Assembly: GCA_021833245.1 (NCBI GenBank)
Contig: JAKBGA010000001.1
Span: 7,466-71,465 of the forward strand
Length of the DNA: 64,000 nt
Direction of reading: 5' to 3'
Origin: a bacterium
GTDB lineage: Bacteria > Patescibacteriota > Minisyncoccia > Phycocordibacterales > Phycocordibacteraceae
Shown: in pieces, positions 16,844 to 63,633 of the stretch
Layout of the letters: every line of letters begins with the position of its first letter
Numbering within the stretch: the first letter of the stretch is position 1
The notes under the pieces: model-generated
What the model saw: only the letters and a program-made list of their open reading frames with translations
Told to the model about the DNA's origin: nothing
Databases searched by the model: none
Made by a program: the position numbers and the translations under genes

Positions 16844-17548
16844 TTATCCACGAGAAGGCGCCCCCTCCTGTATACGAACCGAAGTTTTCTTCTCCTGGTA
16901 TACGTTACCTCGGTAAATCCACACCTTAATACCAATAACACCGTAAGGTAAATACGCCTGTTCATGTGCAAAATCTATATCTGCACGGAACGTTTGTAGT
17001 GGAATACGACCCTTCTTAAGCTCCTCTTTACGGCTCATTTCCGCTCCGCCAAGCCTTCCTGAAATTGCGATACGCACTCCCTCAACCTCACGCACGGCTA
17101 TAACCTTTTCTATCGTCTGTTTAAGTACCCGACGAAATGGCATGCGCTTCTCGAGCCCTTCAGCAACCATGTAGGCAACTACGGAGGCGTCCGTTTCAGG
17201 TTGTCGTACTTCAACGATATCGAATTTGAGAGTTCGACGGTCGGTCGGCGCAATACGGCGCACAAGATTCAAGAGTTCTGTGCGCAACTTGGCCGCGTTT
17301 TCACCAGAACGTCCAATAACGAGTCCGGGACGTCCGGTGGAAAGGACAACGCGTAATTCGTTTGCTGAACGCTCAATCTCGACGCCACTTGTATAAGTAC
17401 CACGCAAACGTTTCGTTAGGAAACGACGAATTAATTCATCTACCTTTATATTCTCGCGGTAACTTTTCTTATCCACAGCAAACCAACGACTTTTCCAGTC
17501 TCTGATGATACCGAGACGGTGCGCATAGGGATGTACGGTGTGCGTCAT
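16844..17548 (-). CDS. rpsC: 30S ribosomal protein S3
   Basis: A KH domain (GRSGENAAKLRTEL) and MTHTVHPYAHRLGIIRDWKSRWFA identify S3. Confidence 0.9.
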   Translation of the reverse strand: MTHTVHPYAHRLGIIRDWKSRWFAVDKKSYRENIKVDELIRRFLTKRLRGTYTSGVEIERSANELRVVLSTGRPGLVIGRSGENAAKLRTELLNLVRRIAPTDRRTLKFDIVEVRQPETDASVVAYMVAEGLEKRMPFRRVLKQTIEKVIAVREVEGVRIAISGRLGGAEMSRKEELKKGRIPLQTFRADIDFAHEQAYLPYGVIGIKVWIYRGNVYQEKKTSVRIQEGAPSRG

Positions 17549-17558
17549 AATTCTAAAT

Positions 17559-17879
17559 TTAAACGAGTGTGACTTTCACACGACTTTTCCGACGGCGGAT
17601 GAGTGAGGCGCGACCGAAAGCACGAGGCATATATTTTTTCAATATGCCAGCATTTTCAACCGTAATTGACTGTACTGTCATTTCATTAGGATCCTTACCT
17701 TTTTCCTTTGCATTCGCCGCCGCACTCCTGATAAGTTTCTCAATGGGTTCAGCTGCACGCTTCGGAAGAAACTGAAGAATCGTGAGCGCTGCCGGGATTT
17801 TCTTTCCTTTCACGAGATCCGTAACGAGACGGACTTTGCGCGGTGTTTGATTATAACTCTGGAGAATTGCTTGTGTCAT
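17559..17879 (-). CDS. rplV: 50S ribosomal protein L22
   Basis: PRKVRLVTDLVKGKKIPAALTILQFLPKRAAEPIEKLIRSAAANA is an L22 sequence. Confidence 0.9.
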   Translation of the reverse strand: MTQAILQSYNQTPRKVRLVTDLVKGKKIPAALTILQFLPKRAAEPIEKLIRSAAANAKEKGKDPNEMTVQSITVENAGILKKYMPRAFGRASLIRRRKSRVKVTLV

Positions 17880-17888
17880 ACAAAAATA

Positions 17889-18233
17889 TTACTTCGCGGT
17901 AGACGTAACAGATGTCTTTGCCGCCTTTGCTGAAGCAATCTCTGCCTTCTGCTTCTTCTGCTCCATTTCTTTCTGCATCTTGCCTCCATGACGAATAAAC
18001 TTTTTAGTTGATGAAAATTCACCGAGACGATGCCCGACCATTTCCTCGGAAACAAGTACCTCGAGATGCTGTTTACCATTATGAACGCCAAAAGTAAATC
18101 CAATCATGTCGGGGCTTATTTGACTTCGGCGTGCCCACGTCTTAATAACGCCTGCCGATGCAGGTTTCGCATTCAAGACCTTCTTCAGGAGCTTAGCATC
18201 CACGAAAGGTCCTTTTTTAAGTGAGCGAGCCAT
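17889..18233 (-). CDS. rpsS: 30S ribosomal protein S19 (Lys/Ala-rich C-terminal tail)
   Basis: [19 protein letters not shown]...[35 protein letters not shown] is an S19 sequence. The start was refined to the Met at codon 37 of a TTG-initiated ORF. Confidence 0.9.
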
Positions 18234-18387
18234 GTGAAGTAATGAAAAGCCCGCGCAAGCGCGAGACAAGTAAAAGATACAGGAATGTTGCAAACCCGTC
18301 AAATATTTGTATTCGTCTACACAATACCTGTCCATATACAATATTAATTGTGTACGCTACATCACCTTTTGGATATACTTATAATGT

Positions 18388-19101
18388 GTGAGAAAACTTG
18401 CAATAAGTACTGTCGCAATTACCCTCGTCATCCTTGTCGGGATCGGGCTTTATTTGTCAGTAAAGCCCATATCCACAAAAACACCAGAGGTTACCTTACC
18501 CGTGGGAGGAAGTTACAGTGAACATACAAAATATTACGATATCGCTACGAATTATCCGGTAACCACGTCACTCGCTGGAACCGCAAACGGTCCTGCACTC
18601 GTACTAATACGAAGTTTTATCGGCCAAACCATAAAACAGTTCAAAACTAGTTTCACTGCCTTTGCTCGGGGGCGTAAGAGCGCGCTCCAGATCACCTATC
18701 TCATCGGTTCCTCTATAAACACACTCTCGTACATATTTACCGTCTATGAAAATATCGGTGGAACACACAGCATGTTTTTCCACACATTTGTGTTCGATAC
18801 CACAACTGGACAGAATCTTTCACTCGCAGATCTCTTTCTACCTGGCACCCATTACCTAGACACACTCTCCCAGATAAGCCGTGCTGAATTGCCAACTGTC
18901 ATCGGTATCGGTGCAACAGACCTCGCTACCATCACCAGCGGCACGAAACCATACGAGAAAAATTTTTCGGACTTCTTTTTTGATAACAATGACTTCGTTC
19001 TTCTGTTCCCACCTTATCAAGTAGCCTCCTATGCGGCAGGTCCACAAACATTGCGTATACCACTTCAGAAACTTTCCAGTATTCTGAAATCAAAATATTA
19101 A
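18388..19101 (+). CDS. membrane-anchored DUF4163/DUF3298 (RsiV anti-sigma-factor extracellular domain-like) protein
   Basis: An N-terminal TM anchor is followed by the C-terminal FPPYQVASYAAGPQ motif characteristic of DUF3298. It has a GTG start. It lies opposite-strand between rplB and rpsS, with a hairpin plus T-run immediately downstream (about 19108-19131). Confidence 0.6.
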   Translation: MRKLAISTVAITLVILVGIGLYLSVKPISTKTPEVTLPVGGSYSEHTKYYDIATNYPVTTSLAGTANGPALVLIRSFIGQTIKQFKTSFTAFARGRKSALQITYLIGSSINTLSYIFTVYENIGGTHSMFFHTFVFDTTTGQNLSLADLFLPGTHYLDTLSQISRAELPTVIGIGATDLATITSGTKPYEKNFSDFFFDNNDFVLLFPPYQVASYAAGPQTLRIPLQKLSSILKSKY

Positions 19102-19150
19102 ACACAGAATCCCCGTCTGGACGAGGATTCTTAAATTCTAGAGAATTTTT

Positions 19151-19363
19151 TTACTTTTCTTCTTGAAAAGACGGCTCAGAACCTGTTTCAAGAGATCTCA
19201 AATAACAGCGGGCATCCGGTCTGCAGTGATAAATGAAAACCGTTATTTTTTTTTCATCTTCTACGCTAATCTCAGTATATCCGTCTTTTAGAGCAACTTC
19301 TTTCCGACATGCTGAAGATGCACATACTATTACTCTTTCAAGAGCAAGGGTGAGTACGTTCAT
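19151..19363 (-). CDS. small hypothetical Cys-containing protein (possible ORF between rplB and rpsS)
   Basis: A 70-aa ORF with two CxxxC/CxxxxxC pairs. It is on the same strand as the ribosomal genes and shows no homology I can recognise. Confidence 0.25.
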   Translation of the reverse strand: MNVLTLALERVIVCASSACRKEVALKDGYTEISVEDEKKITVFIYHCRPDARCYLRSLETGSEPSFQEEK

Positions 19364-19426
19364 GGCAATACCCCTCCATGTCTACCTTCTACGGATTAAG
19401 GATAGCACCAAATTTAAGGACTGAAT

Positions 19427-20275
19427 TTAACCATTGCGCTTCTTGCCAACTTTACGACGTGAAATTATAAATGTATTTGAATACTTTTTTGGAGTACGTG
19501 TTTTTTGACCCTTGCCCGAGGGTTTACCCCACATGGTCTTCGCGCGGCGCAATCCACGACCTTGTTTACCTTCGCCGCCACCGTGCGGGTGATCAACGGG
19601 ATTCATAGCGGTACCGCGAACTGTGGGACGAATACCCATCCAGCGACTACGACCAGCTTTGCCAATAACGACTAGATTATATTCTTCGTTACCAACAGTA
19701 CCGACACTTGCCCACGCGAGATCCGATATTTTGCGTATCTCAGTTGATGGAAGTTTTAGCTGTGCATAACCTGCATCATGCGCAACTACTTCGGCAAAAT
19801 TTCCTGCGGAACGGACAAGACGTGCTCCAGCACCAGGTGAAATCTCAATATTATAGACGAAAGTACCCACCGGTATCGAACCGAGCGGAAGGCGGTTACC
19901 CAAAGCAATCGGTGCGTCGGCAGAAACGATAAAAGAATCGCCGACTTTCATTGCTTTTGGCAAGACAACGTAACGCCGCGCGCCATCCCGATAAAGCACA
20001 AGTCCGATGAATGCAGAACGGAATGGATCATACTCAATGGTTTCAATTTTTGCCGGTATATTTTTTTTATCATAGTAAAAGTCCACATCACGCAACCGAC
20101 GCTTGTGACCACCGCCCTGGTGGCGCGTAGTGATGCGGCCAAAAGCGTTTCGACCACCTTGCCGTTTCTTTTTTTTCAATAAAGGTTTGTATGGTACATC
20201 ACCGGAAAGAAGCTCCTTGTATGGGAGTGTGGTCATAAAACGACGACTTTTTGTGGTTGGACGATAGGATTTCAT
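19427..20275 (-). CDS. rplB: 50S ribosomal protein L2
   Basis: GRNAFGRITTRHQGGGHKRRLRDVDF...GTAMNPVDHPHGGGEGK is an L2 sequence. Confidence 0.95.
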   Translation of the reverse strand: MKSYRPTTKSRRFMTTLPYKELLSGDVPYKPLLKKKKRQGGRNAFGRITTRHQGGGHKRRLRDVDFYYDKKNIPAKIETIEYDPFRSAFIGLVLYRDGARRYVVLPKAMKVGDSFIVSADAPIALGNRLPLGSIPVGTFVYNIEISPGAGARLVRSAGNFAEVVAHDAGYAQLKLPSTEIRKISDLAWASVGTVGNEEYNLVVIGKAGRSRWMGIRPTVRGTAMNPVDHPHGGGEGKQGRGLRRAKTMWGKPSGKGQKTRTPKKYSNTFIISRRKVGKKRNG

Positions 20276-20281
20276 AAAATT

Positions 20282-20656
20282 TTAAGCAAATTGTATGCTG
20301 TCACCATCAGCAAGATAGACGTAGGCCTTATGGCGTGATGTTCTGGAGCCCTCGCCACGCCGAGTGCGTAATGCTTTGTGCTTCGCTGGAAGATTAACAA
20401 TATGCACCTTACGCGGCTCTACATTATAAATCTCTTTGAGAGCACCTGCGATTTCGGCCTTCGTCGCACGTGCAGGGACCTCGAACGTATAGACTCCCTT
20501 TTCGGTCATGATAAGTGCCTTTTCGGAAAACCATGGCGCATGAATTACATTATGCGCAGTCCCGTTAGTGGGCGTCGTGCTACGTACACGATGTGTGCGC
20601 GTGGCTTTACCTTTCTTCTCTTTCTTATTTTTCACTGTAGTACCAAAAATTGCCAT
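20282..20656 (-). CDS. rplW: 50S ribosomal protein L23 (N-terminal extension)
   Basis: HNVIHAPWFSEKALIMTEKGVYTFEVPARATKAEIAGALKEIYNVEPRKVHIVN is an L23 sequence. Confidence 0.85.
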   Translation of the reverse strand: MAIFGTTVKNKKEKKGKATRTHRVRSTTPTNGTAHNVIHAPWFSEKALIMTEKGVYTFEVPARATKAEIAGALKEIYNVEPRKVHIVNLPAKHKALRTRRGEGSRTSRHKAYVYLADGDSIQFA

Positions 20657-20662
20657 AGTAAT

Positions 20663-21397
20663 TTATTTAGATTTGACCCGGGCGGAAAGTGCAGCAAATG
20701 CAACCTCCGGATTTTCAATAATGAGATACTTGTGCGTCAAAATATCGACAGGATTCAGATTGCGAACCTCTTCAGTCATTATGTTCCCGAAATTATTAAA
20801 ACTTTTAGTGGTGTGCGCATTGTATGTGGCAAGCGCAAAAAGCACTGCGTTCTTCCTTTTTGTGGCAATATCCGCTATAGCGGTGCCCTTCGCGAGCTTT
20901 TCTAGCATACTCTTTGCGATCATCGTCCTTGGCGCATTAAACGTAAGGGCATCAATAAGGATTATTTCACCATCTTTAGCTTTCCGAGAAAGCACTGAGA
21001 CGAGCGCGCCAATACGCATCTTGCGGTTAACTTTCTCACTATAATCACGCTCGCTTCGCGGACCGAACGTTATCCCCCCATGACGCCAGATTGGTGAACG
21101 ACTAGAGCCGTGACGCGCCTGTCCAGTTCCCTTTTGTTTCCACGGCTTCTTACCCCCACCCGAGACTTCTGCACGATTTTTAGTATGCGCACGGTTCTGA
21201 CGTGCATTGGCCTGCATTGCCGTTGTTACCTGGTGTACAAGATCAGCTCGCCATGGTGCACCGAATATGCTCTCTGGAAGGGTAGCTATGCCAACCTTTT
21301 CACCATCCATGGAAAAAACTGGCATCTCACGCGGTGCTATCATAGCTTTTGTCGAAAATCTCGACTTCTTTTGAGGAGTTTTCTTTGCGAAAGTCAT
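20663..21397 (-). CDS. rplD: 50S ribosomal protein L4
   Basis: SGGGKKPWKQKGTGQARHGSSRSPIWRHGGITFGP is the L4 signature. The start was refined to the Met at codon 30. Confidence 0.9.
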   Translation of the reverse strand: MTFAKKTPQKKSRFSTKAMIAPREMPVFSMDGEKVGIATLPESIFGAPWRADLVHQVTTAMQANARQNRAHTKNRAEVSGGGKKPWKQKGTGQARHGSSRSPIWRHGGITFGPRSERDYSEKVNRKMRIGALVSVLSRKAKDGEIILIDALTFNAPRTMIAKSMLEKLAKGTAIADIATKRKNAVLFALATYNAHTTKSFNNFGNIMTEEVRNLNPVDILTHKYLIIENPEVAFAALSARVKSK

Positions 21398-21404
21398 AGT
21401 ACGT

Positions 21405-22019
21405 TTAAATAGAAACAACCTCGAGGAGCGTGCCACGACGACCGGGGACAGCACCCGAAACAATGATCTCGCCAGCCGCCACATCGACCGCGAGCACTTT
21501 AAGATTCGCCACGGTTACGCGATCGCCACCCATGCGACCAGCCATACGCATACCCTTTGCGACACGACCACCTGCACGACCACCCGACCCGCCGATGGAG
21601 CCTGGTGCACGCTCAGTATGCTTTTGACCATGCGTGCGCGGGCCACCGTGGAAACCGTGCCGTTTCACCACTCCTGCAAAACCTTTGCCCTTAGTGATGC
21701 CAGAAACTCGTACTATATCGCCCACTGTAAAGACCGACGCGTCAATCGTGTCGCCAATCTTCGCCACATCTTCGGTATGAAACTCGCGAATAGCCTCATA
21801 GCCTCTTCCTTTAGTATGCCCAAGAACAGCCTTGCTAATGTTTTTCGTTTTACGATTACCTTGACCGACTTGAGTTGCCGCATAACCATCTCTACCGTCT
21901 ACAGTCTTCACCTGCGTTACCGTTACTGGATCGGCGATGAGAATGGTTCCTGCGCGAGCACGACCATCCTCCCCGAACACACGGGTCATGCTTTCCTTCT
22001 TGGCAAGAATAAATTTCAT
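21405..22019 (-). CDS. rplC: 50S ribosomal protein L3
   Basis: MKFILAKKESMTRVFGEDG...FAGVVKRHGFHGGPRTHGQ is an L3 sequence. Confidence 0.9.
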   Translation of the reverse strand: MKFILAKKESMTRVFGEDGRARAGTILIADPVTVTQVKTVDGRDGYAATQVGQGNRKTKNISKAVLGHTKGRGYEAIREFHTEDVAKIGDTIDASVFTVGDIVRVSGITKGKGFAGVVKRHGFHGGPRTHGQKHTERAPGSIGGSGGRAGGRVAKGMRMAGRMGGDRVTVANLKVLAVDVAAGEIIVSGAVPGRRGTLLEVVSI

Positions 22020-22132
22020 TTTTAAAGCAAAACGCGCAACAGCAAGTCGCTTTGCGCGAGGTTGCTATAGGACCAGTCGTGGGCACCGTTCGTAGCGTTA
22101 ACAGCACTCTACACAAAATCATAAAAATATGC

Positions 22133-22163
22133 AAGAAAAAACCACATGTCCAAAAAAGACATG
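22133..22163 (-). terminator. rho-independent terminator after the inserted sugar transferase gene, overlapped by a promoter-like element for rplC
   Basis: The minus strand has a CATGTC/GACATG stem with a 7-nt loop, followed by GGTTTTTTCTTGC. Further downstream on the minus strand are TTGCAT, a 17-nt spacer and TAGAGT (about 22106-22134), which look like -35/-10 boxes. Confidence 0.5.
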
Positions 22164-22166
22164 CGG

Positions 22167-22739
22167 TTAAAGGCCATTACGCCCTAAAACTGTTTTGACG
22201 GTTCGGGAAAGAATATATAGATCAAGTAGGAAACAATGGTGGTTAATATAGAAGGATTCTAGACGGAAAACACATCGAATACCGCGTTTGAGCGACCACA
22301 TTCTCCCATGGATCTGCTCAAGCCCGGTCAACCCGGGCCGAACGTTGTTAAGTCGAAGCGCGTATTCAGGAATCTCCTGGATACACTTTTCAACAAATTC
22401 AACCCGATGAGGACGTGGGCCAACTAGACTCATCTGCCCCAACAACACATTGATAAGCTGTGGTAGTTCGTCAATGTGCGTTTCACGCAAAAACTTTCCC
22501 GGCACCGTAATTCGGTTATCACCCAACAAAACCATGTCGAACGGATACCCACTTCCATCCTTCATGGTTCGAAACTTAAAGATGACAAATGACTTACCAC
22601 GATAACCAACACGAGTCTGCCGAAAGATAATCGGCCCAGGTGAAGTTACCCTAATCCAAATCGCAATAAAAAGAACCAGCGGGGCTGAAAAGATCAAGAT
22701 TATGAATGTGCATATGAGATCAAATATTCTTTTGCTCAT
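22167..22739 (-). CDS. small bacterial sugar transferase (polyprenyl-phosphate glycosyl-1-phosphate transferase; WbaP/PglC-like catalytic domain)
   Basis: One N-terminal TM helix and the Bac_transf motifs (RQTRVGYRGKSFVIFKFRTM, DELPQLINVLLGQMSLVGPRP). The start was refined to MSKRIFDL. It is inserted between rpsJ and rplC. Confidence 0.75.
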   Translation of the reverse strand: MSKRIFDLICTFIILIFSAPLVLFIAIWIRVTSPGPIIFRQTRVGYRGKSFVIFKFRTMKDGSGYPFDMVLLGDNRITVPGKFLRETHIDELPQLINVLLGQMSLVGPRPHRVEFVEKCIQEIPEYALRLNNVRPGLTGLEQIHGRMWSLKRGIRCVFRLESFYINHHCFLLDLYILSRTVKTVLGRNGL

Positions 22740-22862
22740 CACTTCCTCCTTAAAAGCGGTAAAAGTGATAGTCGCTGTATACCACAAAAATATGTATATC
22801 GTCAAGTACAAGAAACCGCCCCTACAAGGGGCGGTTTCTTGTACTTCTTTTACAGCATCATT

Positions 22863-23303
22863 CTAAACCATCTTGACGTCTATCGTAACCCCAGAAGGAA
22901 GATTAAGGTTCGTGAGGGCCTCGATCACCTTGGGCGATGGGTTCAGGATATCGACGAGTCGCTTATGAACGCGCATTTCAAACTGTTCGCGTGCATCCTT
23001 ATGCACGAACGTTGAACGATTCACTGTCCAACGTTTGGTCTCAGTTGGAAGCGGTACGGGGCCGACAACAGTTGCGTCAAAGCGGGCCGCGGTATCCATA
23101 ATCTGTTTCACCGAAAGATCAAGAATCTTATGTTCATAGGCACGAACACGAATTCGAAGTTTGTGTTCTACTGAGGGTGCTGTAGCAACTTTTTTTGAAC
23201 CGACTTTTGTCCGCGATATCTTTGATATTGTGACTTTCCCTACTTTTGATTTTGTTGCTACTGTTGTTGCCATACGAGTACTTCCTGATCCGAGTATCGG
23301 CAT
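22863..23303 (-). CDS. rpsJ: 30S ribosomal protein S10 (N-terminal extension)
   Basis: KLRIRVRAYEHKILDLSVKQIMDTAARFDATVVGPVPLPTE is the S10 core. The true start may be the Met at 23273. Confidence 0.9.
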   Translation of the reverse strand: MPILGSGSTRMATTVATKSKVGKVTISKISRTKVGSKKVATAPSVEHKLRIRVRAYEHKILDLSVKQIMDTAARFDATVVGPVPLPTETKRWTVNRSTFVHKDAREQFEMRVHKRLVDILNPSPKVIEALTNLNLPSGVTIDVKMV

Positions 23304-24502
23304 TACGCTGTAATCTTGGTCACGACACCAGCACCAACGGTCTTACCTCCTTCCCGGATAGCAAAACGTTGCTGCTCCTCAAGAGCAACTGGTGCCACGA
23401 GTTTCACCTTGAATGTGACTGTATCGCCAGGCATAACCATTTCCTTACCTTCTGCGAGAGTTACTTCACCGGTCACATCCGTCGTACGAATATAGAACTG
23501 TGGTTTGTATCCAGAGAAGAATGGCGTGTGTCGTCCACCTTCGTCCTTACCGAGAATGTAGACCTCTGCTTCAAAGTCAGTATGCGGCGTAACTGAGCCA
23601 CTCTTGGCGAGAACCTGACCGCGATGTACGTCCTCTTTCTTGGTTCCACGTAGAAGAAGACCGGCATTGTCACCCGCTTGACCTTCCTGAAGCTGCTTAT
23701 TGAACATTTCGATGCCTGTGACAGTCGTCTTCGACGTCGCCTTGATGCCGACAATTTCGACTTCCTCACCAACTTTTACAGCACCACGCTCAATACGCCC
23801 AGTGACTACCGTGCCTCGACCTTCAATCGAGAAGATGTCCTCGATGGGCATGAGGAATGGTTTGGTGAGCTCACGCTGCGGCATGTCGAAATAAGTGTCC
23901 ATTGTGTCGACAAGCTCTTTCACCTTCATGGCGTACTCGTCATTGGCGTCCTTCGCCTCAAGAGCGCGGAGACCGGAGCCACGGATAATTGGCGTGTTCG
24001 CACCGTCATAACCCTGCTTCGTAAGCAACGCATGAATCTCCTCTTCGACAAGATCAACGAGATCTTTGTCGGCCACCATATCCACCTTGTTAAGGAAAAC
24101 GATTAACTTCTTGAGGCCAACTTGCTTCGCGAGTAAGATATGCTCGCGCGTCTGCGGCATTACACCATCAGTTGCGGCAACTACGAGGATTGCGCCGTCC
24201 ATTTGGGCAGCACCCGTGATCATATTTTTTATGTAGTCGGCGTGTCCTGGGGCGTCAATGTGCGCGTAGTGACGATTCGGTGTTTCATATTCAGAGTGGT
24301 GGAGGGCAATAGTAATACCGCGTGCTTTTTCTTCTGGGGCGCTGTCAATTTTATCGACGCCTTCAACACGAGCGCTATAGCCCTGTCCTGAAAGCATCGA
24401 AAGAACGTGTAGAATACCCGCCGTGAGTGTCGTTTTTCCATGGTCCACATGACCGATGGTGCCAACGTTCATGTGCGGCTTGTTGCGATTAAATTCTGCC
24501 AT
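23303..24502 (-). CDS. tuf: elongation factor Tu
   Basis: [17 protein letters not shown] and NKVD are the GTPase motifs. Length is 399 aa. Confidence 0.97.
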
Positions 24503-24764
24503 ATTAAATCGGATGATCTTAAGTTAATAAATCACGAATTAATCCGACGTCTGTCTTGCCGACAAGACAAGTGAGTCGGAACAAACTCTCGAGCTTGCCG
24601 ACCCACAAAAGCAGACAAGCCAAAGAGCGACGCCAAGATGCGTTATAGGCACTATACGCAAACGCGTTTATAAATGCAACTCACCCACGTGGATACACTG
24701 TGAAAATTATTTCCTGCTCGCGCTGATATCTTGAACGATGTCTATAGTGAATCAACTCTTCCAC

Positions 24765-26126
24765 TTACTGACTGAGTGTCCCGATCCAAACACCACCTTG
24801 AGACGTAAGTGCCACGAGGCGCATACCATCGGAGGAAGAGATAATGCTACTCCAGGAGTGCAAGCCTGCGCTCGTTTGAGCGTTCCATGTACTGCCAGAG
24901 TCGGAAGACGTATAGATATAGCCTCCAGTACCAGCGCCGGCGTCATAGATTGCCGCGAGATGCGTACCGTCGGCGGAAGAGACAATACCACCCCAGTAAC
25001 GCTGACCGGCACCAGTTTGAGCGGTCCATGTAGAACCAGAGTCCGATGATGTATAAATGTCACCGCCGCTCCCAGTTCCGCCGTCAGACGCTGCGAGATG
25101 CGTACCGTCGGCAGAAGAAACGAGACCAGACAAGGCACCCGTTGCGTCCCCCATACTATGCATGATCCATGTGGTGCCAGAATCCGAGGATGTGAAAACA
25201 CAGCTACCCACTTCGGTACACGTAGTGTCAATGACTGCGAGATGCGTACCGTCGGCGGAAGAAACAATATGACCGAGCGCGATTTGATAAGACGTACCAT
25301 CTTGAGGTAGCGTGTGAGTAGCCCAAGTAACGCCGAAATCGGCAGAAGTATAAACAACATCAAGCCCTGCAACCGCGAGATGCATACCGTCGGCGGAGGA
25401 CGCGATTCCCGATGCGTTTGTAATTTGACCGGCAGTACCAGTAATGGCGCGCTTAACCCAGGTGACACCGGAATCAGCGGAAACATATACTTCTTTGCCG
25501 TCGGTACCAGCGGCTGCGAGATGTGTACCGTCAGCGGAAGAAGTTATATACCACAATGATGATCCCCCGGGGACGGGCCGATAAACCCATGTGGTGCCAG
25601 AATCATTGGAAGTATATACACCTCCATTTGGGAGGGTATCAACTGCTGCGAGATGCGTACCGTCGGCGGAAGAAGTGATGGTGGAAAAATATAAGGTTGA
25701 TGAACTTTTTGCTTTATATGAACCTTCTGCATTGTGTTCAGCCCAGGTCCAAGAACCCCCCGTGTTATTAATCGGCTCTGTCTGGGGCGCGGAAACATTA
25801 GAGTTATTAGAGTTAGAGTATGTAAAATACGCGAAAACCGCTCCTCCGCCAATAATGGCAATGGCGACCAAGACGATGAGTTTTGTAGAAATTGCTGCCC
25901 CTCTTTTATTTGATACATGATTTAGACTTGTTGCAGATTGCTGTTGGATCGGTGTTGAGAGGTGTGAAGAAATAGATGGTGTCGGAATACTCATTGCGGC
26001 AAATGCTGCACTGATGTCTGAAACCTGCCATCCGTTCGTCGTGAGTTCTTTTGTGATATCTTCCCTTGAAATGCCAGAGGCCATTTGTTGGCGGATGTAA
26101 TTCAGGAGTTGTTCGTTGGGCATCAT
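24765..26126 (-). CDS. membrane-anchored BNR/Asp-box repeat (beta-propeller) protein with a conserved about 40-aa cytoplasmic N-terminal module
   Basis: The N-terminus (LLNYIRQQMASGISREDITKELTTNGWQVSDISAAF) is followed by a TM helix and then about 7 repeats of SSADGTHLAA...YTSxDSGxTW, the S-x-D-x-G-x-T-W Asp-box/BNR motif. It is inserted between fusA and tuf. Several overlapping frame-shadow ORFs are repeat artefacts. Confidence 0.7.
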   Translation of the reverse strand: MMPNEQLLNYIRQQMASGISREDITKELTTNGWQVSDISAAFAAMSIPTPSISSHLSTPIQQQSATSLNHVSNKRGAAISTKLIVLVAIAIIGGGAVFAYFTYSNSNNSNVSAPQTEPINNTGGSWTWAEHNAEGSYKAKSSSTLYFSTITSSADGTHLAAVDTLPNGGVYTSNDSGTTWVYRPVPGGSSLWYITSSADGTHLAAAGTDGKEVYVSADSGVTWVKRAITGTAGQITNASGIASSADGMHLAVAGLDVVYTSADFGVTWATHTLPQDGTSYQIALGHIVSSADGTHLAVIDTTCTEVGSCVFTSSDSGTTWIMHSMGDATGALSGLVSSADGTHLAASDGGTGSGGDIYTSSDSGSTWTAQTGAGQRYWGGIVSSADGTHLAAIYDAGAGTGGYIYTSSDSGSTWNAQTSAGLHSWSSIISSSDGMRLVALTSQGGVWIGTLSQ

Positions 26127-26245
26127 AAGAACAGGTTATGTATATGCTGCAAGCGTAGCACAATCGCCGCCGTTTCGAACAGCAGTTGTTTACAAGCCCT
26201 CTCGTGGTGATTCATTTACAGTTCGCGATGACCAAACACGTGTCC

Positions 26246-28393
26246 TTATTTTCGCGAGGCGATTATGTCTTGGGCGACATTGTTCGGGACAGTATCGTAG
26301 TGATCAAACTCCATTGTCATACTTCCGCGTCCTTCGGTCATTGAGCGGAGCGTCGTGGTGTAGCCGAACATCTCGGAGAGCGGCACCTTCGCTTTAATTG
26401 TCTTGTTCATGCCGCGATCCTCCATACCCTCGATCTGACCGCGCTTACCCGAGAGGTTGCCCGTAATGTCGCCCATGAATTGCTCAGGCACAGTAACTTC
26501 CACGCGCATAATTGGCTCGAGAATGACCGCCTTTGCCTTCGATGCAGCTTCCTGGAAAGCCATTGATGCCGCGATCTTGAAGGCGATTTCGGATGAGTCG
26601 ACATCGTGATAGGAACCATCGTAGAGATCTACGGACACATCAACCATCGGGAATCCAGCAAGGAAGCCACGGGCCATCGCCTCACGAACACCCTTTTCCA
26701 CCGCCGGAATGTATTCCTGCGGAACAACACCGCCCTTTATATTGTTGATAAACTCGAAATGATCTTCGCGTGTAATATTCTTAGACACCTTTGCACCCTC
26801 TACGAGAGGTTCTAATTTCTTCATGCGGATCTTCACATGACCATACTGACCACGACCACCAGTTTGTTTAATATATTTACCCTCGGCCTCTGAAGAACCG
26901 AGAATGGTTTCACGATACGCTACTTGCGGTTTCCCTACATCCGCAACAACATTGAACTCGCGCTTCATGCGATCTACGAGAATCTCCAGATGAAGCTCGC
27001 CCATGCCAGAGATGATAGTCTCGGCAGTCTCATCATCAGTTTTGATTCGAAAGGTCGGATCTTCATCTGCAAGCTTACGAAGCGCAATGCCCATCTTCTC
27101 TTGATCTGCTTTTGTCTTAGGCTCAATACGCAAACTTACCACTGGTTCTGGAAATTTTATCTGTTCAAGCACAATGGGATTCGCCTCGTCGCAGAGCGTG
27201 TGTGAAGTTTTCGTGTCCTTCAGACCAACGGCGGCGGCAATCTCACCAGTGAATACTTTCGCGACCTCTTCACGTTTATCCGCTTGGAGACGCACAATAC
27301 GTCCGACACGCTCCTTGGAACCTGTTGTTGAATTATATACGTACGAACCAGCAGCGAGAGTTCCAGAATAAACACGAAAGAATGTTAATGCTCCAACGAA
27401 AGGATCAGTTTGAAGTTTGAAAACAAGCGCGCAAAACGGCTCATCATCTGATGCGTGACGTTCAATTGATTCGCCCGTCTTCGGATTTGTGCCAGTTGCA
27501 GGCGGAACATCGAGCGGACTTGGTAAATAATCGACAACGGCATCAAGTACGAGCTGAACACCCTTATTCTTGAGTGCGCTCCCGCAGTAAACTGGAAACA
27601 CCTCATTCGCGATAACCGCTTTACGTAGAATTGCCTTTAACTCAGAAAGTGAGGGTTCCTTGCCTTCGAGGTATGCGTTCATTACCGTATCATCTTGTTC
27701 AACAATGCGTTCTATGAGTTCAGCACGGTACTTCTTCGCATCTTCAAGAAGATTCTCTGGAATTTCTCCTTCAACTACCTCCTCGCCCATATTCCCCACG
27801 TAGGTGTACGCTTTCATTGTGAGAAGGTCGACCGCGCCCTCGTGTGCTGCCTCTTCACCAATGGGGATTTGCATGCGAATAGCCTTGGGTGAAAGTCGAT
27901 CAAGAATACTCTTGTATGAATTTTCAAATGATGCTCCAAGCCGGTCAAGCTTATTGACGAAACAGACGCGCGGCACTGACGCCTCGTCGGCGTAGCGCCA
28001 GTTGGTCTCGGACTGCGGCTCCACGCCCGCGACGCCATCGAACACGACAACAGCGCCGTCAAGCACACGCATCGAACGCTTTACCTCAGCAGTGAAGTCG
28101 ATGTGTCCCGGTGTGTCGATGATATTGAAACGGAATTTCTTGGATGCGTCCTTTTTGTCCTTCTCGCCAGTCTTGCTCCAGAAGCAAGTGATGGCGGCGG
28201 CAGTGATGGTGATACCGCGCTCACGCTCCTGCTCCATCCAATCGGTCGTAGTTTCGCCTTCGTGTACTTCACCGATCTTGTGCTGACTGCCCGTATAAAA
28301 AAGTACGCGCTCACTTGTGGTCGTCTTTCCTGCGTCGATGTGGGCAATGATGCCGAAGTTGCGCACTTTCTCAAGCGGATAATCACGGTTCAT
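26246..28393 (-). CDS. fusA: elongation factor G
   Basis: [15 protein letters not shown] and DTPGHIDF are present, with the domain IV/V sequences. Length is 715 aa. Confidence 0.97.
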
Positions 28394-28475
28394 AAATAAT
28401 AATGGATAAAAAAATAAAAAGCGCCGAGGCGTTCTCCAGAGAATAGCCTAGATAAAATAAATTGCAAAGTATGCA

Positions 28476-28506
28476 AAAATAAAAAGCCCACTCTTGCAGA
28501 GTGGGC
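28476..28506 (-). terminator. rho-independent terminator between the 136-aa hypothetical gene and fusA
   Basis: GCCCACTC-TTGCA-GAGTGGGC stem-loop. Read on the minus strand it is followed by TTTTTATTTTT. A 26-bp palindrome (TTATTGTGATTT/GAAAATCACAATAA) lies next to it and overlaps the ORF stop. A TTGCAA/TATTCT promoter-like pair sits downstream, before fusA. Confidence 0.55.
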
Positions 28507-28530
28507 TTAAAAATTATTGTGATTTGAAAA

Positions 28531-28941
28531 TCACAATAACTGATGCGCTTCCATGATAAAGATTTGCTGTGCCTGTGGAAGATCACAGAACAAATCTCTC
28601 AGTTCTGCCCTTGTCTTTGGCATAAGGATACTCGAGACAACGCGAATATTTACGCCATCGTAAGTCCCGTTCATTTGTAAGTGGATACGAAGAAGTACCT
28701 CTCCTGCTGGTGTACAGAATTCCACGCACTTCCGCTGATAGCGGTAGCGCACTCGGATACAAATCGCATCTCGAGTCATCTGGTCTGCAATTTCATCCAG
28801 CCGCGCCAGCAGACGGGAGATACGTAAATTTCTTCTCCATGGATTGAATTCCGCAATGCACGACAACCACGTTGGCATGTAGTATGAATTGCCGGTAACG
28901 TTCTCGCTCCTCTTTGGAACAAGCTTAACCGTTGATGACAT
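28531..28941 (-). CDS. hypothetical protein (136 aa) inserted between rpsG and fusA
   Basis: A clean ORF with a dedicated downstream terminator. No motif I can recognise, but it contains several cysteines. Confidence 0.45.
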   Translation of the reverse strand: MSSTVKLVPKRSENVTGNSYYMPTWLSCIAEFNPWRRNLRISRLLARLDEIADQMTRDAICIRVRYRYQRKCVEFCTPAGEVLLRIHLQMNGTYDGVNIRVVSSILMPKTRAELRDLFCDLPQAQQIFIMEAHQLL

Positions 28942-29062
28942 GATACGTCTCCCTATGTAATGAACAATGATAAACGGAAAATTTAACCCTGATCCGGATT
29001 TTTTGTAGCACTATTTAAATAAATAGTCAAGATTCGCACCTCCTCTACATCTTGCTTAACGG

Positions 29063-29527
29063 TTACCAGGCAAAATGTGCAAAAGCTTTATTAGCTTCAG
29101 CCATACGATGCATTTCGTCCTTTTTCTTTATCGCATCACCTTCATTCTTTGCGGCAAGGATAAGTTCATCGGCAAGCTTATCTGCCATTGGTTTACCTTT
29201 TTTTGCACGTGCAGCGTTGATAATCCAACGAAATGAGAGCGTAAGACGACGGTTCTGAGAAACTTCACGCGGCACCTGGTAATTGGCACCTCCAACACGA
29301 CGAGAACGAACCTCCATGAGCGGTGAAACGTTACGCAACGCTGTCTCGAATGTCTCGAGAGGATTGGTACCGTCTTTTTCAATGGTAGAAAACGCGCGAT
29401 AAACAACTGCACGCGCGGTGTCCTTCTTGCCATCCCACATGACAGCATTGATGAAACGATTGAGTGTTTCTGATCCATACTTAAGATCTGGGCGCCAAAC
29501 TCGCTTCTTTTTAAGAGGTCGACGCAT
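29063..29527 (-). CDS. rpsG: 30S ribosomal protein S7
   Basis: NAVMWDGKKDTARAVVYRAF...NYQVPREV is an S7 sequence. Confidence 0.95.
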   Translation of the reverse strand: MRRPLKKKRVWRPDLKYGSETLNRFINAVMWDGKKDTARAVVYRAFSTIEKDGTNPLETFETALRNVSPLMEVRSRRVGGANYQVPREVSQNRRLTLSFRWIINAARAKKGKPMADKLADELILAAKNEGDAIKKKDEMHRMAEANKAFAHFAW

Positions 29528-29529
29528 AT

Positions 29530-29943
29530 TTATTTTGCAGAAGGACGCTTCGCGCCGTAACGCGAGCGTGAGCGACGGCGTTTATCAAGACCAGCGGTGT
29601 CAAGCTTTCCACGCACAATAGTATATTGCACGCCGATATCCTTCACACGTCCGCCACGAAGTAGCACGACTGAGTGCTCCTGAAGATTATGCGTCTCGCC
29701 TGGGATATAAGCGGTAACCTCCATACCATTTGTAAGACGAACGCGTGCGATCTTTCTGATAGCTGAGTTTGGTTTCCTCGGAGTCTTTGTCGTCACTTTA
29801 GTACAAACACCGCGTTTAAAAGGTGATGGATAGAAAGTTGGACGATTCGAGAGTACGTTAAAGCCGCGCGCAAGGGCGGGTACCTTCGTCTTGGACGATT
29901 TGTTCTTGCGGCCTCTCTTCGAGAGCTGATTGATAGTTGCCAT
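29530..29943 (-). CDS. rpsL: 30S ribosomal protein S12
   Basis: PKKPNSALRKV-type motif ([30 protein letters not shown]). Confidence 0.95.
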
Positions 29944-30016
29944 GTAGAAAAGAAGACCCGAGGAGGGTCATCAAGTAATATAAAGGAATGCTGCGCGGAA
30001 TGCAACTACAGTACTC

Positions 30017-60667: not shown

Positions 60668-62416
60668 ATGCACGTCATGGGGGAAGAAATAAAAGAGTTC
60701 ATCATCGATTCTGGGCTTGTTGCTAAGAAGGACATTGACGCTGCTATCGATGAGTCAAAGAAACGTGGGCAATCTCTTGGTGACGTACTCGTTTCGCGCG
60801 GCTCTCTAAGTGAAGACGCGCTTCGACGTATTCAGGCATACATGCTTGGTATCCCATTTGTAAATTTAAAAGAACATCATATTCCAATTGATATTCTTGC
60901 CCTCATTCCAGAACCAATTGCGCGCACACATAATATTATTGCATTCAAAAAGGATAATGGGTCACTTGAGGTCGCAATGCTTGATGTCGAAGACATCGCC
61001 TCAATAGATTCGGTACGAAAAAAGACTGGTCTTAAAATACTCCCACGATTGACTGATACAGAGAGCATAAAATATGCGCTTCTACAATATCAAAAATCTC
61101 TAAAAGATGAGTTTGGAGATATCATATCGACTGAGGCTGGAAAGATTCACATTGTTTCTCAGGATGGGAAGGAGCTCTCGGGTGAGGAACTAAAAAAAAT
61201 GGCCGAGGATCTGCCGATCGTACGTATCGTCGATACACTTCTAAGACACGCCGTTGTGCAAGGTGCTTCAGATATTCATATTGAGCCGATGGAGGATGAG
61301 GTATTAGTTCGCTATCGTATAGATGGCATGCTTCATGACGCAATGACGCTTCCATCTGCTGCTGCCGCTGGTATCGTCGCGCGCATCAAGGTGCTTTCAA
61401 ACCTAAAGCTTGATGAAAAACGTCTTCCACAAGATGGACGTTTCAAGATGGAAACTGAGAACGATCGCGTCTCCTTCCGCGTCTCAATCCTTCCGACATT
61501 CTTTGGCGAGAAAACAGTCATGCGTCTTTTGCGTGAGACCGGTGAAGGATTCACGCTTGACGTGCTCGGTCTTCACGGCGAAAACATGGAGCGAATTCAT
61601 CGAGCGCTTACACAAACAACTGGCATTATTCTCGTCTCAGGACCAACTGGTTCTGGTAAAACAACGACACTTTATACCATGCTCGATATCCTGAATCGAC
61701 CAGACGTCAACATATCGACGATTGAAGACCCGATTGAGTACCAAATGAAACGCATTAATCAAACGCAAGTGAATCCGCAAATAGGATTCACGTTCGCAAA
61801 TGGACTTCGATCGCTTGTACGCCAGGATCCTGATATTATTATGGTCGGCGAAATTCGTGATAATGAGACAGCATCGCTCGCGATTAATGCAGCCCTCACA
61901 GGCCATCTCGTACTCTCAACGATACACACCAACAACGCCGCGGGCGCCATTCCACGCCTTATCGATATGGGTGTTGAACCTTTTCTCCTCGTTTCTACTA
62001 TTCGGGTCATCATCGGACAGCGCCTTGTGCGTAAATTCTGTGAAGAAAAAGAAGAATACGCGATGGACAAAATCACACGTGCGAAAATCGCAAATGATGC
62101 TGAATTTAATGCAGCGTTTAAAGTGCTTCAGGACGAAAAACTTGTGAGAAAGGGGTCATCGCTTGATGAACTTCGTTTTTATCGACCCATTCCTTCAGCC
62201 GAATGCGAGGATGGCTACAAGACTCGCATCGGTATTCATGAAGTGCTCACCGTCTCATCTGCAATCCGGGAAATCATCCTGCATTCAAGTACGAGCGAGG
62301 CGATCGAGGAGCAAGCGAAGAAAGAAGGTATGCTCACCATGTTTGAGGATGGCCTTTACAAAGCAGCGCGCGGCATCACAAGTCTTGAGGAAGTTTTGCG
62401 TGCGGTAACCGAATAA
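60668..62416 (+). CDS. pilB: type IV pilus assembly ATPase PilB / GspE family
   Basis: N-terminal T2SSE_N domain, Walker A (GPTGSGKTTTLY), Asp box, Walker B and His box. Confidence 0.9.
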   Translation: MHVMGEEIKEFIIDSGLVAKKDIDAAIDESKKRGQSLGDVLVSRGSLSEDALRRIQAYMLGIPFVNLKEHHIPIDILALIPEPIARTHNIIAFKKDNGSLEVAMLDVEDIASIDSVRKKTGLKILPRLTDTESIKYALLQYQKSLKDEFGDIISTEAGKIHIVSQDGKELSGEELKKMAEDLPIVRIVDTLLRHAVVQGASDIHIEPMEDEVLVRYRIDGMLHDAMTLPSAAAAGIVARIKVLSNLKLDEKRLPQDGRFKMETENDRVSFRVSILPTFFGEKTVMRLLRETGEGFTLDVLGLHGENMERIHRALTQTTGIILVSGPTGSGKTTTLYTMLDILNRPDVNISTIEDPIEYQMKRINQTQVNPQIGFTFANGLRSLVRQDPDIIMVGEIRDNETASLAINAALTGHLVLSTIHTNNAAGAIPRLIDMGVEPFLLVSTIRVIIGQRLVRKFCEEKEEYAMDKITRAKIANDAEFNAAFKVLQDEKLVRKGSSLDELRFYRPIPSAECEDGYKTRIGIHEVLTVSSAIREIILHSSTSEAIEEQAKKEGMLTMFEDGLYKAARGITSLEEVLRAVTE

Positions 62417-62418
62417 GC

Positions 62419-63633
62419 ATGAAGTTTCATGTGACTATAAGAAAGGGCGGTACATCAGATGAGGTGCGCGCTGTCGAGGCATCCTCGCGCTTCGCAGTGT
62501 ATGACCAAGTACAGAAAGAAGGAGGCACGGTTATAGAACTTGAGGAGGATGCTGAGAAACTTGCGCTTCCCGCATGGCTCAATATCTCTATTGGCACAGG
62601 TGTGAAACGCGCTGAAATAATCAGATTGGCTCGAAATCTTTCTGCAATGCTCAATGCCGGCCTACCACTTTCTCGAGCACTTTCAGTTATCGAACGACAA
62701 TCGGGTAATAAACATTTAAAGATAATCGTCGCGAAAATTTCCGACTCTATTAAAAAAGGTTCCTCGTTCCATGAGGCATTGGCCGTCTATCCGAAAATAT
62801 TTCCTGAACTTTTTATTGCTATGGTAAGGGCAGGCGAAGAATCAGGTTCTCTCACCGATGCACTTAATGTTGTCGCGATTCAGATGGAACGCTCAGAGAC
62901 ATTGGTGCGGAAAATAAAGGGTGCCATGATTTACCCATCAATCGTTATCACCGCAATAATTATTGTCGGTATTCTCATGCTGATTTTCGTCGTACCAACG
63001 CTGACGAGTACCTTTACCGAACTTCATGTGCCACTGCCGTTTGCTACTCGCGTTATTGTTGCCGTATCAAATTTTACAGTTGCCAATGTTGCATTTTTGT
63101 TCCCCGTGCTCATTGTACTTGTTGTTGGGGGTATTACGTTCGTTCGCTCTAGAGTAGGTAGCAATGTCATACTCTCAGGTGCACTTTATCTACCAGTCGT
63201 GAACGAACTCATACGTGAGACCTACACTGCACGTGCATCCCGTACACTCTCCTCTCTTCTTTCCTCTGGTGTTCCAGTACTTGAGGCACTCTCCATAACA
63301 AAAGACGTTGTGCACGCGACTGCCTTTGCAGCTGTAATAAGTGAAGCAGAAGAGCGTGTTAAGAAAGGTGAACTTTTATCAACTGCGTTCGCAGAGAACA
63401 CAAAACTTTATCCAGTTCTAATGGGTGACATGCTTTCGGTTGGAGAGGAGACCGGAAAAGTTGCTGAGATGCTGAAACAGATTGCCGAATTTTATGAAGA
63501 GGATGTCGCAGAAAAAACGAAAGACCTTTCGACTATCATCGAGCCGGTTCTCATGTTGTTTATCGGTACTATTGTTGGTATTTTCGCTGTCGCAATGATC
63601 GCGCCGATTTACTCTCTGTCATCTGCCTTCTAA
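62419..63633 (+). CDS. pilC: type IV pilus platform protein PilC / GspF family
   Basis: Two T2SF repeats, three TM helices and a conserved GEESG motif. Starts 3 nt after the pilB stop. Confidence 0.9.
   Translation: MKFHVTIRKGGTSDEVRAVEASSRFAVYDQVQKEGGTVIELEEDAEKLALPAWLNISIGTGVKRAEIIRLARNLSAMLNAGLPLSRALSVIERQSGNKHLKIIVAKISDSIKKGSSFHEALAVYPKIFPELFIAMVRAGEESGSLTDALNVVAIQMERSETLVRKIKGAMIYPSIVITAIIIVGILMLIFVVPTLTSTFTELHVPLPFATRVIVAVSNFTVANVAFLFPVLIVLVVGGITFVRSRVGSNVILSGALYLPVVNELIRETYTARASRTLSSLLSSGVPVLEALSITKDVVHATAFAAVISEAEERVKKGELLSTAFAENTKLYPVLMGDMLSVGEETGKVAEMLKQIAEFYEEDVAEKTKDLSTIIEPVLMLFIGTIVGIFAVAMIAPIYSLSSAF

Follow-up and report, generated by a model that had tools for sequence, protein, structure and literature searches.

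Gene content of the rpsJ–rplC junction

We analyzed a 64,000-nucleotide (nt) stretch of patescibacterial DNA (GenBank assembly GCA_021833245.1, contig JAKBGA010000001.1, positions 7,466 to 71,465 of the forward strand; hereafter the window), in which a gene coding for a small sugar-phosphate transferase is lodged within the ribosomal protein gene cluster, between rpsJ (ribosomal protein S10) and rplC (ribosomal protein L3). All genes within 17500–30000 are encoded on the minus strand, except for a DUF3298 gene at 18388–19101, which is listed on the plus strand. The features from tuf to rplB that bear on the transferase gene are the following, in the direction of transcription:

24651–24679, minus strand: tuf promoter-like element, TTGCAT-17-TATAGT (promoter function predicted)
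23303–24502, minus strand: tuf (EF-Tu), 399 amino acids (aa); GTP_EFTU with E 1e-61, plus domains D2 and D3
22863–23273, minus strand: rpsJ (S10), 136 aa from the ATG at 23273; Ribosomal_S10 with E 4e-33
22804–22846, minus strand: perfect hairpin of 20 base pairs (bp) with a 3-nt loop, just past the rpsJ stop (inverted repeat 22804–22823/22827–22846)
22776–22805, minus strand: transferase promoter-like element, TTGACG (22805–22800), 18-nt spacer, TGg-TATACA (-10 at 22781–22776); read from the sequence, promoter function predicted
22745–22750, minus strand: AGGAGG (Shine-Dalgarno sequence), 5 nt upstream of the start codon (ATG at 22739); the orthologous loci have AGGAGGAAGTGATG or a similar sequence
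22167–22739, minus strand: transferase (predicted small monotopic phosphoglycosyl transferase), 190 aa plus stop; supported by Pfam, alignment to PDB proteins, NCBIfam and substitution rates
22133–22168, minus strand: intrinsic-terminator-like hairpin (12 pairs, 5-nt loop) with the U-tract UUUUUUC; from a terminator scan and RNA folding
22106–22134, minus strand: rplC promoter-like element, TTGCAT-17-TAGAGT, 86 nt before the rplC ATG at 22019
22020–22105, minus strand: structured rplC 5′ leader, with a variable hairpin at ~22070–22091 and a GC-rich hairpin plus U-rich tail at ~22027–22065
21405–22019, minus strand: rplC (L3), 204 aa, after which rplD, rplW and rplB follow without gaps
down to 19427, minus strand: rplD, rplW and rplB

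Identity of the transferase

The open reading frame (ORF) at 22167–22811 matches the Pfam profile PF02397 (Bac_transf) with E 6.6e-56 and 189 bits (cutoff 27), over positions 1–178 of the 179 in the profile. Its likely start is the ATG at 22739, which has AGGAGG 5 nt upstream and coincides with the start of the orthologues (189–193 aa); hence, the product comprises 190 aa and not 214. The TTG start at 22811, adopted in an earlier note that had been made on this DNA from its letters and ORFs, is unlikely. The protein aligns over its full length with PglC (PDB 8e37 and 8g1n, E ~1e-30) and also matches the catalytic domain of WbaP (PDB 8t53, E 2.6e-31). The catalytic Asp-Glu dyad (Asp93-Glu94 in PglC) and the nucleotide-binding PRP motif, as defined in PMC10186338, are recovered in the segments hiDELPQL and SLVGPRP, which are aligned with slDELPQL and SFIGPRP of PglC, respectively, and a KFRTM motif is present. 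In the N-terminal hydrophobic stretch LICTFIILIFSAPLVLFIAIWI, the Pro is aligned, at the level of sequence, to the corresponding Pro of PglC (FSAPLVL versus LTSPIII). The full-length domain, the dyad and the PRP motif together place the predicted product in the Bac_transf (PF02397) superfamily. In NCBIfam, only the C-terminal catalytic parts of the models for large phosphoglycosyl transferases were matched (E 3e-70 for TIGR03025; positions 257–442 of 445), with scores below the full-length cutoffs; since the matches are confined to this part, the protein is best interpreted as a minimal, small monotopic phosphoglycosyl transferase.

The closest parallels are offered by two known groups. With PglC of Campylobacter, the transferase shares the size class (190 versus ~200 aa), the full-length alignment, an N-terminal hydrophobic stretch with an aligned Pro and the motifs KFRTM, DELPQL and GPRP. 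It departs from PglC in the published fingerprint of specificity for UDP-N,N′-diacetylbacillosamine (UDP-diNAcBac), which consists of an aromatic box (Tyr118/Tyr122/Trp150/Phe154/Phe197), a GLLLP loop and a C-terminus ~14 residues longer than in other small members (PMC10186338). Here DMVLLGDN stands where PglC has GELLPDD (LLG instead of the GLLLP loop), the positions of W150 and F154 are not occupied by Trp or Phe, and the protein ends ~15 residues short of the PglC C-terminus. Thus, the description "PglC-type" in the earlier note holds in the broad sense only and fails in the strict one: because the loop, the aromatic box and the longer C-terminus are absent, identity as a diNAcBac-specific PglC is ruled out by the published fingerprint, and the sugar is probably not diNAcBac. 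A further difference from PglC is genomic, in that the transferase gene lies outside any pgl-like glycosylation cluster, in 64 kb without glycan genes. With WbaP/WcaJ, the large polyprenyl-phosphate hexose-1-phosphate transferases, it shares the best sequence matches, which cover the entire catalytic domain (PDB 8t53; TIGR03025 and TIGR03023), but it corresponds to the catalytic core only, without the N-terminal transmembrane and DUF domains of these enzymes.

By homology to PglC and WbaP, the transferase would be seated on the cytoplasmic face of the membrane and would move a sugar-1-phosphate from a UDP-sugar onto polyprenyl phosphate, thereby initiating a surface glycan; its enzyme activity, sugar specificity and glycan product are all predictions of this kind. 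An exact-sequence look-up of the window's transferase returned no record. The gene is intact and functional-looking, and the earlier note's identification of a Bac_transf-type initiating transferase between rpsJ and rplC is upheld. That note had also named degeneracy of the ORF in relatives as something that would count against it, and this check gives a mixed outcome. The ratios of nonsynonymous to synonymous substitution rates (dN/dS) against orthologues are 0.06–0.20, that is, the gene is under purifying selection where it is present, although it is missing altogether from most relatives.

Signals around the cassette

On the 3′ side, the transferase gene runs directly into a 12-pair hairpin, AACCGCATGTC-TTTTT-TGGACATGTGGTT (22168–22140), followed by TTTTCTTGCA. 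This is the best terminator-like site in 19000–27000, is seen in both the minimum free energy and the centroid folds, and has the sequence features of an intrinsic terminator: 5 of its 12 pairs are GC, its tail is TTTTCTTG, and the stem contains TT before the tail. The stop codon TAA of the transferase (22167–22169) forms part of the foot of the stem, and the -35 of the rplC promoter-like element begins directly after the U-tract (...GGTTTTTTC-TTGCAT). A homologous hairpin, T[A/G]ACCGCGCGC...GCGCGCGGTTTTT, is found in all loci of relatives that carry the transferase, including the locus L003. The impression that the terminator is missing in L003 and L004 (5500–5552) was a misreading: the hairpin is intact there, and a 2-nt deletion that removes the transferase stop extends the ORF by 14 codons through the hairpin into the spacer of the rplC promoter.

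On the 5′ side, the extended -10 promoter-like element of the transferase lies directly past the 20-bp hairpin and 36 nt before the ATG. Eight of nine orthologous loci retain the pattern TGnTAnnnn in the corresponding place, and the ninth (L087) has TTGACA-17-TAAAGT. The 20-bp hairpin itself has a fold z-score of -6.7, and none of 200 shuffled sequences folds as well; it is presumed to be the terminator or insulator of a tuf–rpsJ unit. In this genome its U-tract is interrupted, with UUUCUUGUACUU within the 3′ arm, and it fails a strict hairpin-plus-T test that 46 of 66 relatives pass. The loop of this hairpin (22824–22826) is inverted between the window (CTTGTAG) and the 98%-identical strains at loci L001 and L012 (CTACAAG), which looks like a loop flip within the inverted repeat. 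Separately, a 12-nt near-repeat, CATATTTTT[A/G]TG, occurs on the minus strand in the spacers of both the rplC and the transferase promoters (22120–22131 and 22783–22794); it could be the trace of a partial promoter duplication or a matter of chance.

The rplC element belongs to a small set of similar sites. A generic promoter scan called 7 sites against 10.4 expected, so that a single site of that generic kind is not above chance. The more specific pattern TTGCAT-N17-TAnnnT, for which 0.82 occurrences would be expected in the 64 kb, is found exactly three times, in each case on the minus strand and immediately in front of a gene, namely rplC, tuf or rpsL. The tuf and rplC sites additionally have AGTGCnnnTAACGC in common just past the -10. 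Among 85 loci of relatives, 64 have the exact TTGCAT-17-TAGAGT 76–193 nt before the rplC ATG; the hexamers are conserved and the spacer sequence is variable, whatever lies further upstream. With its hexamers, its spacing within 17 ± 1 nt and its conservation, the rplC element is a real-looking sigma-70-type promoter. The tuf element is the likely promoter of the tuf–rpsJ unit and the sole candidate for an "rpsJ promoter".

These observations bear out the terminator on the transferase strand and the TTGCAT-17-TAGAGT element (22134–22106) just before rplC that the earlier note had pointed to. They are likewise in line with its notion of an autonomous cassette, to which a promoter-like element and a strong ribosome-binding site of its own can be added beside the terminator. 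Its proposal that the transferase is transcribed from the rpsJ promoter is not supported. The rpsJ ATG at 23273 is just 29 nt past the tuf stop, which leaves no room for such a promoter, and the nearest candidate element is upstream of tuf; moreover, the 20-bp hairpin intervenes between rpsJ and the transferase, and the latter is preceded by TTGACG-18-TGgTATACA and its ribosome-binding site.

The rpsJ–rplC gap as a variable slot

To place the junction in its phyletic context, one genome per species was scanned by means of an L3 alignment, which yielded 80 loci from organisms named Candidatus Kaiserbacteria, Paceibacteria, Parcubacteria or Patescibacteria. Few of these 80 loci have the transferase. 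The gap between rpsJ and rplC ranges from 147 to 3859 nt; in about 17 species it measures at most 250 nt and has no ORF, and in the others it holds unrelated ORFs. Overall, the cargo comprises more than 25 unrelated families, of which the transferase is the commonest. Those that could be named through Pfam include NYN, TrmB, a CarboxypepD_reg surface protein, a PG_binding protein with a trypsin-like peptidase, and PaaX/Cas2-like, Fic, P63C and IS1595 transposase proteins; many of the ORFs are without a Pfam match. In L088 (191–3808), the slot extends over 3.9 kb and encodes a transposase of the IS1595 family, a protein with a P63C domain and a Fic protein; it is the only instance in which a mobile-element gene was seen.

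As a control, all junctions from fusA to rplV were measured. Gaps of more than 400 nt were found at these junctions:

fusA|tuf: in 29 of 36 loci
rpsJ|rplC: in 46 of 67 loci
rplB|rpsS: in 40 of 60 loci

The other five junctions (tuf–rpsJ, rplC–rplD, rplD–rplW, rplW–rplB and rpsS–rplV) never exceed 225 nt, and tuf–rpsJ in particular never exceeds 219 nt in 66 species. The variable junctions are therefore fusA|tuf, rpsJ|rplC and rplB|rpsS only. With its fixed flanks, differing content and invariant neighboring junctions, rpsJ|rplC is a variable slot between core genes. In relatives, the fusA|tuf junction holds unrelated small ORFs or nothing and represents a second such slot, and the rplB|rpsS junction represents a third.

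The slot appears to be built on an older operon boundary. Among ~65 related species, nearly every locus that was folded has a GC-rich hairpin behind the rpsJ stop, regardless of what lies downstream, and in loci with an empty gap (e.g., L015, L036, L050, L052 and L075) the T-tract of the rpsJ terminator runs directly into TTGCAT. In the window, it is the transferase's own terminator that occupies this position next to TTGCAT. Because the relatives with empty gaps already have both terminator and promoter, the cassette sits in a pre-existing junction and did not create the split. The earlier note had concluded that the S10 operon is divided here, with the cassette as the implied cause; the division between rpsJ and rplC holds, but the cassette is not its cause, given that gaps of 147–250 nt without any insert are already split. 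Taken together, the split of the S10 gene string between rpsJ and rplC is predicted to be an ancestral operon boundary that is shared by the whole lineage and also serves as a slot for accessory genes.

A comparable arrangement is known from cyanobacteria, plastids and archaea, whose str operon has the gene for S10 after that for EF-Tu/EF-1alpha and whose next operon opens with the gene for L3. The Kaiserbacteria resemble it in having rpsJ attached to tuf, with 29 nt in between in the window, and an operon boundary between rpsJ and rplC. They differ from it in that this boundary is a hypervariable accessory-gene slot, the gene order being still collinear with the classical bacterial one, and in that the cluster is also broken at fusA|tuf and rplB|rpsS.

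A second parallel is with chromosomal regions flanked by core genes that are hotspots of horizontal gene transfer (Oliveira et al. 2017, PMC5635113). As in those, the core flanks are fixed, the content turns over quickly, and most instances are without a mobile-element gene, the one with the IS1595 transposase excepted. Unlike those, the Kaiserbacteria slots interrupt the ribosomal protein supercluster, a gene string that in bacteria is usually one of the most rigid, and the genomes compared here belong to different species of a candidate order or family instead of being strains of one species. In a limited literature search, no report of inserts in the ribosomal operons of Kaiserbacteria was found.

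The leader of rplC

The stretch between the -10 and the rplC ATG is conserved, in the window and in L005–L091, as a leader of 76–133 nt. In the window, its GC-rich hairpin ends 8 nt before the AUG, and there is no Shine-Dalgarno sequence. An alignment of the leaders of 43 species contains two helices, in which 95.6% of the cells form a standard pair against a mean of 79.7% in shuffled alignments, and 92 cells are changed on both sides against a shuffled mean of 31.5. Not one of 500 shuffles attains these values, and sliding the partners out of register gives 25–51% pairing. Changes on both sides are spread over 9 of the 15 pairs of the leader. The rplC leader is thus a conserved structure in the 5′ untranslated region (UTR), backed by compensatory changes.

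Rfam at its gathering threshold found only four tRNAs in the window, and a permissive search of 21950–22900 gave sub-threshold noise on the hairpins only; as these searches produced no match, the leader and the hairpins belong to no described family. By analogy, the leader is a candidate ribosomal-protein autoregulatory RNA. The S10 leader of Escherichia coli responds to L4, combines an attenuator with a translational operator, and is confined to Gammaproteobacteria (PMC3616713). The two are alike in being structured leaders with a terminator-like hairpin directly before the first gene of a unit that contains rplD. They differ in that the Kaiserbacteria leader precedes rplC and not rpsJ and is similar to the E. 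coli one neither in sequence nor in Rfam, such that the analogy is a functional one only.

Distribution of the cassette among relatives

Protein searches with the transferase recovered a tight group, mostly of 189–190 aa, with 58–97% identity, followed by a drop to ~50% and below. The genomic position was looked up for eleven homologues. All ten orthologues (97, 83, 65, 64, 64, 62, 60, 58, 58 and 50% identity) are directly upstream of rplC, and downstream of rpsJ wherever the contig extends far enough; the eleventh homologue, with 49% identity, sits elsewhere, after rnc–smc. In two of the loci, L009 and L010, one extra ORF of unknown function and another hairpin come between rpsJ and the transferase. 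Among the 80 loci, JAJXVZ010000003.1 (isolate BP5.bin54) is 98.3% identical in DNA to the window. The cassette is homologous throughout the carriers in all its parts, namely the promoter, the short UTR, the ribosome-binding site AGGAGGAAGTGATG and the terminator. On a neighbor-joining tree of six concatenated proteins, the carriers are scattered. The tree of the transferase is roughly congruent with that of the ribosomal proteins, neither of them carrying support values, and the divergence of the transferase scales with that of L3.

Around the cassette, only short two-copy matches were found in a search for target-site duplications and mobile-element ends, the 12-nt near-repeat of the two promoter spacers being the one of note, and no convincing break in composition was seen. 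An origin borne by an insertion element or an integrase is rejected, there being no such gene or repeat in the window.

Origin and expression of the cassette: weighing the alternatives

We consider it probable that the window, which comes from a Candidatus Kaiserbacteria genome (Paceibacteria, Patescibacteria), carries a self-contained transferase cassette, which occupies an old terminator–promoter slot between rpsJ and rplC and is mainly transcribed on its own. Under this interpretation, the ribosomal string of the Kaiserbacteria lineage would have been cut into the fixed modules rpsL–rpsG–fusA, tuf–rpsJ, rplC–rplD–rplW–rplB and rpsS onward, with the post-rpsJ hairpin, TTGCAT-17-TAGAGT, the structured leader and rplC succeeding one another at the rpsJ|rplC junction. 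This boundary would then have become one of three slots in which accessory genes are gained and turned over between species. The cassette that entered it would consist of an extended -10 promoter, a ~30-nt 5′ UTR with a strong ribosome-binding site, the 190-aa transferase and a terminator of its own that abuts the rplC -35; it would be transcribed mainly from its own promoter, with some read-through from tuf–rpsJ being possible. The cassette is probably old. Purifying selection maintains it in its carriers, most relatives would have lost or replaced it, and we favor vertical descent with loss as the inferred course of its history.

Several points weigh against this interpretation. The window's post-rpsJ hairpin lacks a clean U-tract, as its failure in the strict terminator test reflects, and read-through into the transferase could for this reason be substantial. 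The -10 hexamer of the transferase, TATACA, has a final A and was not called by the generic promoter scan. More generally, all the promoter and terminator calls rest on sequence and conservation, from which promoter and terminator activity and the degree of read-through are predicted. The 64 kb hold no other genes for glycosyltransferases, flippases or sugar-nucleotide enzymes, so that the pathway that the transferase would start is unseen. Finally, with scattered carriers and a tree without bootstrap values, descent with many losses is indistinguishable from exchange of the cassette between species.

The first two of these points are also what speaks for co-transcription, in which the transferase would be the third gene of a tuf–rpsJ–transferase transcript that starts at the upstream ribosomal promoter and ends at 22140–22168, thus tying the initiation of a glycan to the expression of translation genes. 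The gene is on the same strand as rpsJ and only 123 nt away from it, and intrinsic terminators are seldom complete. We nonetheless deem this account unlikely: a strong post-rpsJ hairpin is near-universal in the clade, even where only the rplC promoter lies downstream of it, and has a proper T-tract in most relatives (the 46 of 66 that pass by strict criteria). Furthermore, the distance between the TGn extended -10 and the ATG is constant in 8 of the 9 carrier loci, with L087 offering a perfect TTGACA-17-TAAAGT, and the extra ORF and hairpin in L009 and L010 further separate the transferase from rpsJ. A different possibility is that the position itself is functional, i.e., that the transferase is kept beside the ribosomal genes for timing with ribosome synthesis or for a translation-linked role, and its location is under selection. 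The presence of all ten orthologues (50–97% identity) in the slot, with the nearest homologue outside the group being elsewhere, would agree with this, as would the flanking promoters, which appear to be the strongest in the window. Against it, the transferase is absent from most species of the clade, the cargo of the same slot belongs to more than 25 unrelated families (a transposase and a Fic protein among them), two further junctions of the cluster behave alike, and the cassette has its own promoter and terminator. Gene order in ribosomal clusters is rarely rearranged, and a gene once slotted there tends to stay or be lost, so that the fixed position is explained without selection; we therefore hold a selected location to be very improbable.

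The most serious competitor concerns not the expression of the cassette but its history, with the cassette being laterally exchanged among Kaiserbacteria through homologous recombination in the conserved flanks (tuf/rpsJ and rplC), such that whole slot contents move. The carriers are indeed patchy (L011, L087 and L010 are each surrounded by non-carriers, and L048 is a non-carrier within a group of carriers), the flanks are 89–100% identical in protein across the clade, and no direct repeats resembling target-site duplications flank the cassette. Many transfer hotspots have no mobile-element genes, and their turnover is thought to proceed by recombination in the flanking core genes (PMC5635113). 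On the other side of the ledger, the transferase tree, for all that both trees are without support values, broadly follows the ribosomal one: L010 and L087 are deepest in both, L011 comes next, and the window with L003, on the one hand, and L005, L007, L008 and L009, on the other, form inner groups. Add to this the scaling of transferase divergence with that of L3 and the lack of a composition break, and lateral exchange remains in our estimate a doubtful account, if one with a genuine minority chance, next to the vertical inheritance of a self-contained cassette. A still broader scenario would have fusA|tuf, rpsJ|rplC and rplB|rpsS serve as exchange sites, with the near-invariant ribosomal genes acting as homology arms that move cassettes, of which the glycan initiator is one, and with the rplC leader acting as a new attenuator that senses a ribosomal protein. 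We regard this as speculative and unlikely; if true, it would give genome-reduced, episymbiotic bacteria a built-in means to swap envelope and defense-type genes.

Implications

The rpsJ–rplC pair belongs to the most conserved gene string of bacteria, which is also a routine set of phylogenetic markers for uncultured lineages. Here, a whole candidate lineage uses three junctions of this ribosomal string as accessory-gene slots; hence, even the ribosomal cluster tolerates flexible content, given an operon boundary. Annotators and binning pipelines that assume contiguity of the cluster should allow for inserts. The transferase, for its part, suggests that some Kaiserbacteria, a group whose envelopes are essentially unstudied, have a surface glycan linked to polyprenol. 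On the regulatory side, TTGCAT-17-TA[G/T]AGT would provide a first promoter consensus for this group, and the covarying rplC leader a candidate regulatory RNA.

Other features of the window

The remaining features of the cluster and its surroundings are:

29977–30005, minus strand: rpsL promoter-like element, TTGCAT-17-TATATT, the third of the TTGCAT-N17-TAnnnT sites
29530–29943, minus strand: rpsL
29063–29527, minus strand: rpsG
28531–28941, minus strand: ORF of unknown function, 136 aa, without a Pfam match, between rpsG and fusA
26246–28393, minus strand: fusA
24765–26126, minus strand: BNR/sortilin-repeat protein, 453 aa, between fusA and tuf
18388–19101, plus strand: DUF3298 gene, between rplB and rpsS
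below 18341, minus strand: rpsS and the remainder of the cluster

The DUF3298 gene at the rplB/rpsS junction is found in the same place in L003, L010 and L011 and is absent in L005–L007. Ahead of the rpsS ATG at 18232, the element TTGACG-17-TATCTT is followed by a small GC hairpin (18240–18303, minus strand), which suggests that rpsS onward might be another separate unit. Upstream, the rpsG–fusA junction measures only ~210 nt in L011, so the 136-aa ORF at 28531–28941 may mark a further variable spot. The S10 protein of the window is extended at its N-terminus by ~35 aa rich in Lys and Thr, with the Pfam domain beginning at residue 50 of the 146-aa ORF; in relatives it is called at 120–142 aa (136–142 aa in some). 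The ORFs for L4 and S19 (20663–21484 and 17889–18341) likewise start well ahead of their domains. Farther away, the plus strand at 60668–63633 encodes a type IV pilus assembly ATPase (T2SSE) and a platform protein (T2SSF); these are the only obvious genes for surface structures in the window. Lastly, the 453-aa BNR/sortilin-repeat protein encoded between fusA and tuf is marked by repeated SSADGTHLAA units.

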